Below, piece after piece: positions 6,400 through 34,775 of a stretch of DNA of 34,816 bases. The notes under the pieces are model-generated. The model made no database searches. It was not told the origin of the DNA and saw nothing but the letters and a program-made list of their open reading frames with translations. The translations under genes were made by a program, and so were the position numbers. Origin of the DNA: a virus (lineage: Duplodnaviria; Caudoviricetes); IMG/VR virus record IMGVR_UViG_3300037478_000409, positions 1 through 34,816 of that record; one strand, written 5' to 3'. Within the stretch, counting starts at the first letter, position 1, and every line of letters starts with the position of its first letter.

Positions 6400-6635
6400 T
6401 GGTGCTGGTAGCTGGCTCGGTAACCCCGCAGATTCTGCGGGGTGCAGATTCTGCGCCCTTTCGGTGGTCCGCTGGTCGGACTAGTACGCCCTGCGGACTA
6501 GCCGCTGGCGCTGGGCCGCACAGCGGCCTAGTCCCGGATGCCTATCCGATGGCCTATCCGCTCAGGGTCCCGGAACCCCGGACCCTGTGGAGGGGTGTCG
6601 GTAGTGCCGACACCCGACCCGCGACTGAGGAGTGA
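6396..6635 (+). CDS. Possible small ORF composed largely of palindromic DNA
   Basis: GTGA overlaps at both ends; no recognisable domain. Confidence 0.35.
   Translation: MMVLVAGSVTPQILRGADSAPFRWSAGRTSTPCGLAAGAGPHSGLVPDAYPMAYPLRVPEPRTLWRGVGSADTRPATEE
6423..6615. repeat. Array of about eight short inverted repeats, mostly unrelated to each other
   Basis: e.g. ACCCCGCAGA-T-TCTGCGGGGT (6423-6443), CAGGGTCC-N9-GGACCCTG (6563-6587), GGGTGTCGG-N5-CCGACACCC (6593-6615). Confidence 0.8.
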
Positions 6636-7671: not shown

Positions 7672-8157
7672 CTACATCCGGGCCAGGATCTCCACCCGCT
7701 TCGCGTCGTGTTCGGCCTGGCTGATCAGACCCCGACGCAGCAGATCCCGCAGCCGCTCCAAGGCCGCCCCCGGGTCCTCCGCCACCGGCGCGGCAGCCGC
7801 AGTCGCCTCGGTCCGCTGACCCACCCGCGACCGGACCAACTCGGCGAACCTCCGGGCCGCATCATCACCCTTGATCCACTTCATTTCGAGCTGGTTCCCC
7901 GACGCGAACAGCTTGTACCAGTGGCCCATCATGTTCTTCCCAGCTTCGAAGCTGGACACCTGACCCCACGGGTACGACTCCAGCTCATGCCCGGTGATCT
8001 TCTTCCGGAAGAACACCAACCTGCGGTCCGTCGCCAGCAAGATCCCAGTACGTAGCGTGTCCCCCCGCACGTACTGCCCCTCGACCACCGCGTCCACCCG
8101 CTCCCCACCTTGCAGGTGCTCGGTCACCATCTCCATCAGCTTCGCCATCGACGCCAT
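7672..8157 (-). CDS. Bacterial PH-domain protein with C-terminal SHOCT domain (moron)
   Basis: GILLATDRRLVFF...SYPWGQVSSFE (bPH-like) and ALERLRDLLRRGLISQAEHDAKRVEIL (SHOCT); TACCCT 7 nt before ATG. Confidence 0.85.
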   Translation of the reverse strand: MASMAKLMEMVTEHLQGGERVDAVVEGQYVRGDTLRTGILLATDRRLVFFRKKITGHELESYPWGQVSSFEAGKNMMGHWYKLFASGNQLEMKWIKGDDAARRFAELVRSRVGQRTEATAAAAPVAEDPGAALERLRDLLRRGLISQAEHDAKRVEILARM

Positions 8158-29716: not shown

Positions 29717-30460
29717 CTACTGCGGCGGCTGGTTGTACCGGTCCAGCGTGGCCTTACCGGTCGAGGCGTCCTGAAACACCAGCTCCCACGGGCCGGTGTT
29801 CACGTCCATCTCCCGTCCGAACCCTGCCCACTTCCCCACGATCCGGCGGCCGGTCGGCTCGGCCATCAGCTGAACCGCGCCGTGGTAGCGGGCGCCGCGG
29901 TAGTAACCTTCCGGGTCGGTGTGCTCCGTCCACGTCCCGGTGATCACGTTCCCGTCGACGGTCAGGTCCATGGTGAGCTGCCCGGCCGCCGACCCGGGCA
30001 GTGACCGGACGGTGAGCCGGTCACCGTGCTGGAGTACGACCACGTGGTGCTGGCCGGTGAACGTCGCGTCTCGGCCTGAGCTGTAGTACTCGTACCTGGA
30101 CAGCCACACCCCGGAGTAGTTGCCCCTCGGGCTGGCCTGCCGGGCGGGGGCGCCGTTGCCGGCCGGTGGGCCGACAGGCTGTAGGTCATGCCCGCCGTGG
30201 TCGTCGCCAGCCACCCGCGCGGCGACCAGCGGGAACCCCAGTGAGCTGATCGGCAGCCCGGTGACCGCTTCCAGGGCGCGGGCGTACACCGGCCGGGGGG
30301 CGGTGATGGTGCCCGACTCCCACCGTTGCACCAGCCGCTTGTTCGCGTCGTTGGGTTGCCCGGCCCGGTCTCCAGCTCGGCGCAGCGCCCGGGCGAAGTC
30401 GTCCTGGCTCATGAGCATCCCCATGCGCACGGCGCGGAGGGTGCCGTTCGGGGTGGTCAT
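29717..30460 (-). CDS. XRE-family HTH regulator with C-terminal beta-barrel-like domain
   Basis: LRAVRMGMLMSQDDFARAL...VQRWESG; C-terminal YSGVWLSRY...ITGTW...GKWAGF; TACCGT 7 nt before ATG. Confidence 0.85.
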   Translation of the reverse strand: MTTPNGTLRAVRMGMLMSQDDFARALRRAGDRAGQPNDANKRLVQRWESGTITAPRPVYARALEAVTGLPISSLGFPLVAARVAGDDHGGHDLQPVGPPAGNGAPARQASPRGNYSGVWLSRYEYYSSGRDATFTGQHHVVVLQHGDRLTVRSLPGSAAGQLTMDLTVDGNVITGTWTEHTDPEGYYRGARYHGAVQLMAEPTGRRIVGKWAGFGREMDVNTGPWELVFQDASTGKATLDRYNQPPQ

Positions 30461-30483
30461 GCCCTCGACGGTAGCAGGGCGTG

Positions 30484-30560
30484 TGTCGCCGGACTGTCGC
30501 CCTACCTGTCGCCGGTTGGACGCCTCTACCGCCGTCGCGCCGGGCGACAGTCCGGCGACA
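30484..30560. promoter_or_regulatory. Operator-like 19-bp perfect inverted repeat built from TGTCGCC units
   Basis: TGTCGCCGGACTGTCGCCC (30484-30502) and GGGCGACAGTCCGGCGACA (30542-30560); extra TGTCGCC at 30507. Confidence 0.7.
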
Positions 30561-30643
30561 TCCTGTGGCCAGGTCGGTGCGCGGCCGGCCCCGGTGCCCT
30601 TTTTCGGCACGCCCCGAAAATGGCCAGCCACGGGAGGTGCGCG

Positions 30644-30820
30644 ATGTTGCGGCGGTTGTGGCCCGGGCGGCGGTGGACGTTGCCGGACCCGTACCCGTCC
30701 CGGGACCGTTCCGGGCGGCTGGTCGACGGGGACCGGGTGTGCCCGGACGGGCGGGAGCGGTGGACCGACCTGCTCCCGACCCGGCGGGTCGACCCGGACC
30801 GGGGTGGCGAGGATGCCTGA
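30644..30820 (+). CDS. Small hypothetical protein
   Basis: GGGAGG RBS before ATG 30644; divergent from the XRE gene. Confidence 0.5.
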   Translation: MLRRLWPGRRWTLPDPYPSRDRSGRLVDGDRVCPDGRERWTDLLPTRRVDPDRGGEDA

Positions 30821-31055
30821 GGCGTCGGACTACGAGTTGTGGGCCGCGGCCCGGGTGGTGTCCATGCACGCCGCGGGCGGCCGGTGCGGTCGCTGCCAGC
30901 CCGATGGGCAGTGCCGGCTGTACGCCTGGGCCGACGTGCTGCTCAAGAGGTGGGAGGCGTCCTGGGGGCGGCAGTACCCGCACCGGGCACCTTCGTGGGA
31001 GTCCGCCCAGCTCGCCGACCGGCTGACCACCGTGGTCCGGAGGCCGACCGCCTAA
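30813..31055 (+). CDS. Small putative zinc-binding protein
   Basis: H....RCGRC....C motif; overlaps the previous stop. Confidence 0.6.
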   Translation: MPEASDYELWAAARVVSMHAAGGRCGRCQPDGQCRLYAWADVLLKRWEASWGRQYPHRAPSWESAQLADRLTTVVRRPTA

Positions 31056-31091
31056 GACGCGGGTTTGCATTTGCCGGCCCGGATTGTAAGT

Positions 31092-31180
31092 CCCGCCCCC
31101 GCGCGCGCGAGGCTCATGCTTGGTGATCTTGCGGGCGTCCGCAAAGTTGCTGCCCGCCCCCGCGCGCGCGAGGCTCATGC
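31092..31180. repeat. Two exact 28-bp direct repeats at 61-bp period (CRISPR-like mini-array geometry; not a confirmed CRISPR)
   Basis: CCCGCCCCCGCGCGCGCGAGGCTCATGC at 31092-31119 and 31153-31180; partial copies at 31541-31556 and 31601-31618. Confidence 0.8.
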
Positions 31181-31480
31181 CCCGGCTCGGTGGGCGCGGA
31201 CCCGGCATGCCCCGGTGGCGTATCTGGCTTCCGGCCGCGGTGAGGTGACGGGCTGGCCACAGCCGCAGGCGCACGGCCGCAGGATGCCGGCCGCGCTCGG
31301 CGCGGCCAGCGCCCAGAGGTGTTCGAGGTGCGGGTGGACGGCTACGGCTACGGCCACCTCTAGGCCGCGCAGGAAGTCGTCGTTGTACTGGGGCCGGTCG
31401 GGGTCGGGGCCGTTGAGGTAGGCCACTACTTGCCGGGCGATCTCCTCGCTCACCGCTTGGATGTTCGGGGTCTCGGTCAC
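31175..31480 (-). CDS. Small protein with C-terminal zinc-finger-like DNA-binding motif
   Basis: CACGCGQPV...ARYATGACRVRAHR; leaderless promoter immediately upstream of GTG 31480. Confidence 0.7.
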   Translation of the reverse strand: MTETPNIQAVSEEIARQVVAYLNGPDPDRPQYNDDFLRGLEVAVAVAVHPHLEHLWALAAPSAAGILRPCACGCGQPVTSPRPEARYATGACRVRAHRAGA

Positions 31481-31484
31481 GCCC

Positions 31485-31529
31485 CCAGTGTAACACCTGC
31501 CGTTACTCCAGTGCAACACCTACCGTTAC
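31485..31529 (-). promoter_or_regulatory. Promoter TTGCAC-18-TACACT overlapped by two 22-bp direct repeats (operators)
   Basis: CCAGTGTAACACCTGCCGTTAC (31485-31506) and CCAGTGCAACACCTACCGTTAC (31508-31529). Confidence 0.7.
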
Positions 31530-31560
31530 GCCTCTCGGCTCCGCGCGCGAGGCTCAGGAA

Positions 31561-31589
31561 CAAAACCGATGGTGCCACCATCGGTTTTG
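31561..31589. repeat. Perfect 29-bp palindrome
   Basis: CAAAACCGATGGTG-C-CACCATCGGTTTTG. Confidence 0.85.
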
Positions 31590-31689
31590 ATCCGCCCCCC
31601 CCCGCCCCCGCGCGCGCGTGGCCAGCGGTACCCCGATCAGGCACCTTCCTGGCAGGCTGCCCAGCTCGCCGGTTTTTGCCGGCCCCGGC

Positions 31690-31735
31690 AAAAATGAACC
31701 GGCCCCATCGTGCCCTGGGGCGACGATGGGGCCGG
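31690..31735 (-). terminator. Intrinsic terminator of the leftward right-arm operon
   Basis: 13-bp stem CCGGCCCCATCGT/ACGATGGGGCCGG followed by TTCATTTTT on the minus strand, 10 nt after the stop at 31745. Confidence 0.75.
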
Positions 31736-33817: not shown

Positions 33818-34243
33818 TCAGCCGGCCACCGGAACCGGGGCGGTCTCGGTGATCGGGTCGGTCTGGTCGATGTCGAACAGGTAGGCCAGCCGGAAGCGCA
33901 TCCTGGACCGGGTCGCCTCGCCCTGCTCCCCGTCGCTGCCCGCCGGCTCGTCGGTGGACTCGCCGCGGGGCGGGATCGGCGCCAGAACCGCGATGCCGGA
34001 CTCGCCCTTGCGGACCTGCCGGCCGAGCTTGCGCCACTCGACGAAGCCGTGGACCTCGGTGGCGGCCGGGCGCTGCATCGCGATCAACATGGCGTTGCGG
34101 GCGGAGTAGCCAGCGAACCGGGCGAGGATCTGCGCCCTGTCTTCGTCGCTGAGCTGGCCTGCGTACTCGTCCAGCTTCTGCCGCAGGGCGGTGATCTTCT
34201 GGTGCCGCGCCTCGATGTCCCGCTTGGTGCTGCGCCGCTTCAT
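33818..34243 (-). CDS. ArdC-like N-terminal ssDNA-binding domain protein (stand-alone)
   Basis: YSARNAMLIAMQRP.AT.V.GFVEWRKLGRQVRKGESGIAVLAP...LFDIDQT; AGGAGG RBS. Confidence 0.88.
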   Translation of the reverse strand: MKRRSTKRDIEARHQKITALRQKLDEYAGQLSDEDRAQILARFAGYSARNAMLIAMQRPAATEVHGFVEWRKLGRQVRKGESGIAVLAPIPPRGESTDEPAGSDGEQGEATRSRMRFRLAYLFDIDQTDPITETAPVPVAG

Positions 34244-34683: not shown

Positions 34684-34731
34684 TGACTACGGATCAAGAG
34701 GTTGGGGGTTCGAATCCCTCCGGGCGCGCCA
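34684..34731 (+). repeat. attR core (duplicated tRNA-Arg 3' half)
   Basis: Exact 48-bp copy of 505-552. Confidence 0.95.
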
Positions 34732-34775
34732 GCCACGACCAGCGGAAACGTCACCAGTAGCCGATCATGAGCGGT

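Follow-up and report, generated by a model that had tools for sequence, protein, structure and literature searches.

The window (the whole 34,816-nt stretch of DNA analysed here) is an actinobacterial prophage integrated at a tRNA-Arg(ACG) gene, with the tRNA at positions 477–552 and a 51-nt copy of the tRNA 3′ end at 34684–34734. Its gene set includes an integrase, replication initiator, terminase, portal, capsid and tape measure, the portal matching mostly actinophages, and the GC content is 70.6%; searches via the tRNA and two proteins identified no host. To the left of the tRNA lies the end of a second tyrosine integrase (2–237), which suggests that another element is stacked at the same tRNA site. 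A stand-alone ArdC N-terminal domain gene is found at 33818–34243, and a bacterial PH-domain plus SHOCT gene (7672–8157) is inserted against the prophage direction. The array described below occupies a variable region, with a regulator gene (29717–30631, minus strand) and two small divergent open-reading frames on one side and the leftward right-arm genes on the other. The N-terminus of the regulator in this 29717–31055 region resembles an HTH, and three sampled genomes contain close relatives; no relatives were found of the small gene at 30813–31055, the divergent frame that was searched.

Four repeats, two of them exact 28-mers and two decayed, are arranged around two spacers of 32–33 bp and a 353-bp gene cassette. 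A leader-like stretch (31056–31091, plus strand), with an imperfect palindrome at ~31069–31085 inside it, ends in AAGT directly before repeat 1 (31092–31119, plus strand), which consists of a 5-nt arm, a 16-nt hairpin (GCGC loop, one C-A mismatch) and a 7-nt handle. Repeat 2 (31153–31180, plus strand) is identical, so the exact 28-bp repeat with a 61-bp period reported in the initial annotation is located as described there; its parse as a 29-nt repeat (5+16+8) with a 32-nt spacer was right in type I-E geometry, but the exact repeat is really 5+16+7 nt and the spacer 33 nt. Spacer 1 (31120–31152, 33 bp) is a centred imperfect palindrome, TTGCGG-N4-CCGCAA, in which G-T wobble pairs lengthen perfect arms of 6 bp. 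The two degenerate copies also proved real: repeat 3 (31534–31559, plus strand) is a decayed copy of 26 nt, 2 nt shorter than repeat 1 and agreeing with it at ~21 of 28 positions as read from the sequence, and repeat 4 (31592–31628, plus strand) has a C-rich expansion of ~8 nt and agrees at 79% with the exact repeat over 31601–31628. Between them lies spacer 3 (31560–31591, 32–33 bp), a perfect palindrome (31561–31589) whose 14-bp arms meet at a 1-nt centre. The description of the intervening sequences as inverted repeats therefore holds for spacers 1 and 3, but not for the stretch between repeats 2 and 3, which is the gene cassette.

The 3′ end of repeat 4 overlaps a gene remnant (31620–31671, plus strand), the 3′ end of a gene homologous to the small one at 30813–31055 (79% over 52 nt). 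The 3′ end of this small orphan gene is thus duplicated (30966–31017 and 31620–31671; 79%), each copy being followed by a similar TTTGCCGG palindrome, and the duplicated flank brackets the array. A further palindrome that had been linked to the array (31673–31694) exists, with 10-bp arms, but stands free outside it, behind the duplicated gene remnant. Two copies of the 25-mer repeat core occur in the window, as many as in none of 100 shuffles. A Logan contig over 29500–33000, which may come from the same sample, has no differences from the window, and a 151-nt contig from another study matches 31148–31298 exactly, across the border between repeat 2 and the gene; given these two contigs, an assembly artefact is unlikely. 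Elsewhere in the prophage, directly after the replication initiator gene, different palindromes occur at 6423–6615, the first with I-E-type stem arms and a 7-nt loop. The array had been thought to echo this cluster, but the palindromes there are without flanking repeats, and no support was found for a likeness beyond the abundance of palindromes in both regions.

The 353-bp insert between repeats 2 and 3 carries an antisense gene for a 101-aa zinc-finger-like protein (31175–31480, minus strand), whose TGA stop codon is provided by repeat 2. The protein model has a pLDDT of 89.6, and there was no Pfam, PDB or clear Atlas match. Twenty proteins, the query's own included, are homologous at E ≤ 0.001; the C-terminal 31–34 aa, which contain a conserved Cys-rich motif, are 88–97% identical in 8 of the 20, and the variable N-termini are mostly unrelated. 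Upstream lies a predicted leaderless promoter (31487–31529, minus strand) with two GTAAC-N7-GTTAC palindromes that are operator-like in form (31490–31506 and 31513–31529). A palindrome of this type precedes the start codon by 6–8 nt in 7 of 9 distinct homologous loci, and a further copy stands just before the Cys-rich motif in 8 of the 9. Across the gene family (window 31175–31529; L012, L013, L031–L044) the genes are apparently leaderless, with a near-fixed operator-promoter palindrome, a very variable N-terminus and a conserved Cys-rich C-terminus, and judged from these features the family looks like a mobile self-repressing module. We infer that the insert is a self-repressing cassette that entered the array; the second operator-like copy, beside repeat 3, may represent what was once spacer 2. 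The cassette was excluded as the source of the array repeat, the core being held by 0 of 16 homologous loci.

No locus with the exact window repeat was found in viral contigs or in genome contigs, and relatives came only from looser patterns. Scanning viral contigs for two hairpin cores 30–60 nt apart returned two loci, L089 and L088. L089 (contig G592) is a seven-repeat array behind a tape-measure-like gene, with periods of 86, 62, 60, 61 and 61 (60–62 in four of the five measured units) and a strong hairpin just upstream of its leader end; at the same site in a sister element on the same contig there is one repeat (L090). A 15.9 kb element with terminal repeats, G594, carries a three-repeat array (L118) whose two spacers are identical to two L089 spacers (59/59 and 34/34 nt), the flanking repeats and the neighbouring genes of the two elements being different. 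The 59-nt spacer common to both contains three overlapping palindromes. In G594 a zinc-finger-motif gene with its own palindrome adjoins the array. All differences among L089, L118 and L090 can be explained by deletion between repeats. The elements of G592 (L096, L097) and G594 (L135) are tandem and circular, encode a serine integrase, primase, terminase, head protease or capsid and a tape-measure-like gene, and have only three proteins in common with the window. We call them satellite-like because they have the tape-measure-like gene and no further tail protein was found among 20 proteins scanned. The second locus of the scan, L088:800–1200 on a 62-kb virus contig, is a cas-less array of four repeats with I-E layout, a mismatched stem and irregular, non-palindromic spacers.

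A search for the repeat elsewhere with varying, palindromic spacers, proposed with the initial annotation, thus yielded relatives whose spacers are different and mostly palindromic, which argues that the window array is not a simple local duplication. Six loci from a looser scan comprised two G592 sites and four single cores without arrays, and of eight loci from another looser scan three belong to the array family and five are unrelated. Genomes sampled by bacterial family gave no arrays, only chance-level single cores in 8/301, 0/58 and 4/201 genomes; a DNA search of 301 genomes gave short matches, none of which covers the array among the matches listed, and two tRNA-linked islands contained no array. 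Solitary copies resembling the L089 repeat are found between genes in two Streptomyces plasmids (L101:3001–3028 and L102:3001–3027), possibly as empty seeds or solitary repeat units. In another phage a lone hairpin core (L091:2501–2520) directly adjoins an AT-rich palindrome; a tape-measure-like gene lies downstream.

For comparison we assembled a genuine type I-E set (L099, L142–L171) from the I-E locus annotated on a Streptomyces angustmyceticus plasmid and 30 loci from one sampled actinomycete family. In this family, which may not be the host lineage of the prophage, 36 of the 86 genomes carry arrays of I-E geometry with a 61-bp period, and the 30 loci come from these genomes. Repeats 1 and 2 give a period of 28 + 33 = 61 bp, and their 5+16+7 layout is the same as that of genuine actinomycete I-E repeats. 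At 13 of 22 genuine I-E array starts AAGT is found five bases before the hairpin (AAG plus one base at 17 of 22), its background frequency being 0.0011 per position. The window and L089 have AAGT in I-E register; it is one base off in L090 and absent from L118 and L088, and no upstream leader motifs beyond AAGT were evident in the window. The annotated absence of cas genes from the record was borne out, profile searches for Cas1 (PF01867) and Cas6e (PF08798) finding neither in any of four records, with a Cas6e model that gave a hit in only 1 of 14 controls but in 4 of 5 actinomycete genomes. Rfam CRISPR families were found in none of the window, L089, L088 and L118, and the annotated I-E array likewise gave none; equilibrium folding gave a hairpin probability near 0 in test and genuine arrays alike, the positive control failing too.

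On a profile of 25 genuine I-E repeats, genuine repeats score 25–40 bits, the best L089 repeat 17.0 (in the same orientation) and the window repeat 3.7, which three chance sites in the window outscore. The window hairpin, the one part of the repeat that falls within the genuine range, reaches 13.1 bits, as the lowest genuine repeat does, with its one C-A mismatch, the genuine set having been picked by a paired-stem pattern from which a mismatch frequency is not readable. The conserved I-E features are missing from the flanks: the 5′ arm scores −8.5 bits against a genuine minimum of −0.5, and the handle −0.8 bits in the window and −10.3 in L089 against a genuine minimum of 4.8. Position 6 of the handle, a C in 30 of 31 genuine handles, is a G in the window, where 5 of 8 positions of common handles are kept. 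Among 31 consensus repeats the best match agrees with the window repeat at 21 of 29 positions, a consensus that may not be the true host's. The window array falls short of a functional I-E array. As its repeat does not outscore chance hits, the case for CRISPR ancestry is built on geometry, leader and sister array. The 61-bp period, the AAGT leader end shared by the window and L089, the 17.0 bits of the L089 repeat and a weak BLAST match from the L089 array to the S. angustmyceticus plasmid I-E array (E about 1) make descent from an I-E mini-array very probable, and the lack of AAGT in L118 and L088 weakens this argument.

It is in their palindromy that the spacers stand apart. Inverted-repeat scores are 6 and 14 for the two window spacers, spacer 1 being the weak palindrome with a score of 6, and 9.5, 10, 3.5, 5, 9.5 and 12 for those of L089. 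Five of these eight spacers score at least 9, whereas none of the 442 genuine actinobacterial I-E spacers does (Fisher p = 4e-10); of the latter, 2 reach a score of 8 and 42 reach 6. Among random 33-mers from the window 4 of 600 score at least 9. The window spacers were noticed for their palindromy, but L089 was found by repeat pattern alone, and there 4 of 6 score at least 9. The three L088 spacers score 3–5 (none of the three palindromic) and were left out of the count of eight. Several spacer dyads have a centre of 0–1 nt; such centres are usual in protein-binding DNA dyads, and RNA hairpins usually lack centres so tight. Spacer GC is 0.44–0.58 against 0.68, and the spacers fold on themselves at up to −19 kcal/mol for 33 nt, compared with at most −15.3 in 41 genuine spacers. 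Spacer 3 is still a perfect palindrome though both flanking repeats have decayed. By this shape and composition the spacers are candidate operators.

Searches for spacer sources or protospacers in phages, plasmids, viral contigs, 56 genomes and 182 compared records, with 4 of the 8 spacers blasted singly, gave chance-level matches only. A 20/21 match in a Streptomyces plasmid gene was rejected as a spacer source, as it does not hold the full palindrome. The spacer cores are absent from the 182 compared records, among which there are I-E arrays and leaders but few cas promoters, and the searches run found no cognate protein for any spacer. Palindromes of a similar kind may occur within genes for phage proteins of the antirepressor and partition types.

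Of the two functions first suggested for the array, a working crRNA mimic is the less supported: the 5′ arm and 3′ handle lie beyond the range spanned by the 25 genuine actinobacterial I-E repeats, and there is a C-A mismatch in the stem. The other, an undescribed system in which GC repeats enclose stored operator-like palindromes, is the best fit, though not as a wholly new system, the array looking CRISPR-derived. The explanation we favour, with somewhat less than even confidence, is a cas-less, I-E-derived mini-array kept for its spacer DNA, the palindromes serving as decoy operators against DNA-binding regulators of rival elements such as phages and satellites. Operator copies would multiply as the element replicates and titrate a rival repressor or partition-type protein from its own genome, which would upset the rival's lysogeny, replication or anti-defence genes. 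Host Cas1-Cas2 would fill the leader-repeat junction with 33-bp pieces at a 61-bp period, spacers with a whole dyad site would be retained by selection, and spacers would be lost via recombination between repeats. A wider version, which we regard as possible but doubtful, has prophages and satellites carry a leader-repeat seed that host Cas1-Cas2 fills with foreign DNA, with only whole dyads kept, and makes the array an adaptive, Cascade-independent library of decoy sites, a CRISPR memory that serves as DNA and not as RNA.

Several observations argue for the decoy role: palindromy of at least 9 in 5 of 8 spacers and in none of 442 genuine ones, tight 0–1-nt dyad centres together with the spacer GC of 0.44–0.58, and spacers that outlast their repeats, as in the intact spacer 3 and the identical L089 and L118 spacers between differing repeats. 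Processing signals have drifted, as seen in the handle bits and in the L089 hairpin upstream of the leader end; a decoy role would have no need of Cascade, and this would account for the decayed handle. The piece beside repeat 3 is moreover a second copy of the operator-like site that heads the zinc-finger family, a family present in 16 other loci. Against this, neither a source nor a cognate protein was found for any spacer, deletion accounts for all differences among L089, L118 and L090 and leaves acquisition presumed, and L088, from the same scan, has no palindromic spacer among three. The one spacer that intact repeats flank, spacer 1, is only weakly palindromic, and the G-T extension of its arms on the plus strand suits RNA, and a single site copy would be a weak sink unless the element is amplified.

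If the spacers act as RNA, the array may be an RNA-guided mini-array, transcribed by read-through from the small operon at 30644–31055 and cut by host Cas6e, with host Cascade guided to the conserved operator palindromes of rivals for cutting or silencing. We consider this the main rival of the decoy role, possible but less likely. Its precedent is stronger than that of the decoy role, in virus-borne mini-arrays and crlRNAs as portrayed in the cited parts of those reports (PMC6858448, PMC11656645, bioRxiv 10.1101/2024.10.29.618823), degenerate repeats being possible in crlRNAs, and a palindromic target would be hard to mutate away from. Exact repeats 1 and 2 with their 33-nt spacer form an intact unit, the handle still has its 5 of 8 common positions, and in the sampled family, though it may not be the host's, 36 of 86 genomes have I-E-geometry arrays and 4 of the 5 genomes checked have Cas6e. 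This must be reconciled with a handle and 5′ arm outside the genuine range, the stem mismatch, spacers that self-fold at up to −19 kcal/mol, conservation of a 59-nt spacer, and searches for a target and PAM that found neither. Should the transcript instead trap Cas6e and Cas7 in dead-end complexes, hairpin spacers preventing working guides, the array would be an RNA anti-CRISPR sponge. Racrs are repeat mimics in prophages and Cracrs also compete for Cas proteins, according to the parts cited (PMC10651486; bioRxiv 10.1101/2024.10.29.618823), but Racrs are solitary and selected for likeness to host repeats, the window and L089 are arrays of low likeness, and a sponge has no need for different, conserved palindromes, all of which makes this very unlikely.

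The array may also do nothing, as a decaying mini-array whose palindromes stem merely from preferential capture or survival of hairpin-forming DNA. Two of the four repeats (3 and 4) have decayed, the array is broken up by the gene cassette, and type III-A adaptation is described in the cited part of one study as preferring partly palindromic, structured DNA (PMC8860593). Genuine actinomycete I-E arrays show no palindrome bias (0/442), however, and identical spacers persist in two elements whose repeats and neighbouring genes differ, so a functionless relic appears improbable to us. Finally, the array may owe nothing to CRISPR, the GC palindrome being a protein-binding or recombination site that was locally duplicated and the 61-bp period coincidental. 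The background-level repeat score, a repeat core that is a near-perfect DNA palindrome, the single cores of Streptomyces plasmids and of another phage, where a palindrome adjoins the core, and the local recombination visible in zinc-finger cassettes and gene remnant would all suit such an origin; periods of 60–62 in four of five L089 units and of 61 in the window, AAGT in I-E register in both, and exact repeat borders that fit the I-E 5+16+7 layout would not, and we hold it to be quite improbable.

Like the virus-borne mini-arrays of Saccharolobus SPV1 and SPV2, as presented in the cited parts of two reports (PMC6858448; PMC11656645), the window array is cas-less, has few spacers and a leader-like end, lies on a virus and presumably has a role in inter-element conflict; it falls within the description of a mini-array with few spacers and no cas genes on a virus or satellite. 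The repeats described there are host-identical and the spacers match related viruses, whereas here the repeat is strongly diverged, the spacers are palindromic and no target was found. The resemblance to Cracr/crlRNAs, including the type I-E CracrIE, as far as the cited section sets them out (bioRxiv 10.1101/2024.10.29.618823), lies in prophage carriage, degenerate I-E-like repeats, one to three spacers and regulatory DNA as the aim, and in the window, too, degenerate CRISPR-like repeats flank a spacer. The Cracr spacers of that section correspond to cas or CreT promoters and can be short (24 nt in CracrIE1), but ours are full-length or longer dyads without a match in the I-E loci compared. 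Racrs, or solitary repeat units, are defined in the cited part of their report by a solitary repeat with no partial repeat within 100 bp (PMC10651486); they share likeness to CRISPR repeats, a place in intergenic prophage DNA and the lack of cas genes, but the window has four copies, two of them 61 bp apart, with low similarity to genuine repeats and distinct spacers. Satellites are also described as turning phage VIPR towards REP decoy sites by means of solo vrRNAs (bioRxiv 10.64898/2026.10.15.759431); there, too, an orphan guide-like array and palindromic decoy DNA meet in phage-satellite conflict. VIPR uses GGYNN RNA guides and host REP sites, and here an I-E-like scaffold stores the palindromes itself. 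Actinomycete type I-E arrays (L099, L142–L171) share the 61-bp period, 5+16+7 repeat, hairpin and AAGT leader end, and differ from the window in having cas genes and in lacking its diverged arm and handle, stem mismatch, palindromic spacers and inserted gene.

No report of mini-arrays with palindromic, operator-like spacers was found in the literature, mostly outside subscription papers and supplements, and what is new relative to known mobile-element mini-arrays is the strong, unexplained bias to palindromic spacers. The described uses of CRISPR by mobile elements that we found (mini-arrays, Racrs and Cracrs) all act via RNA and host effector complexes. Each spacer offers a ready probe for an uncharacterised DNA-binding protein. 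Even if the array is RNA-guided, its strong bias to dyad sites would point to a specific target class in phage-satellite conflict; if the decoy role is true, operator-like palindromes collected while the processing signals decay would represent a DNA-level use of the adaptation step alone.
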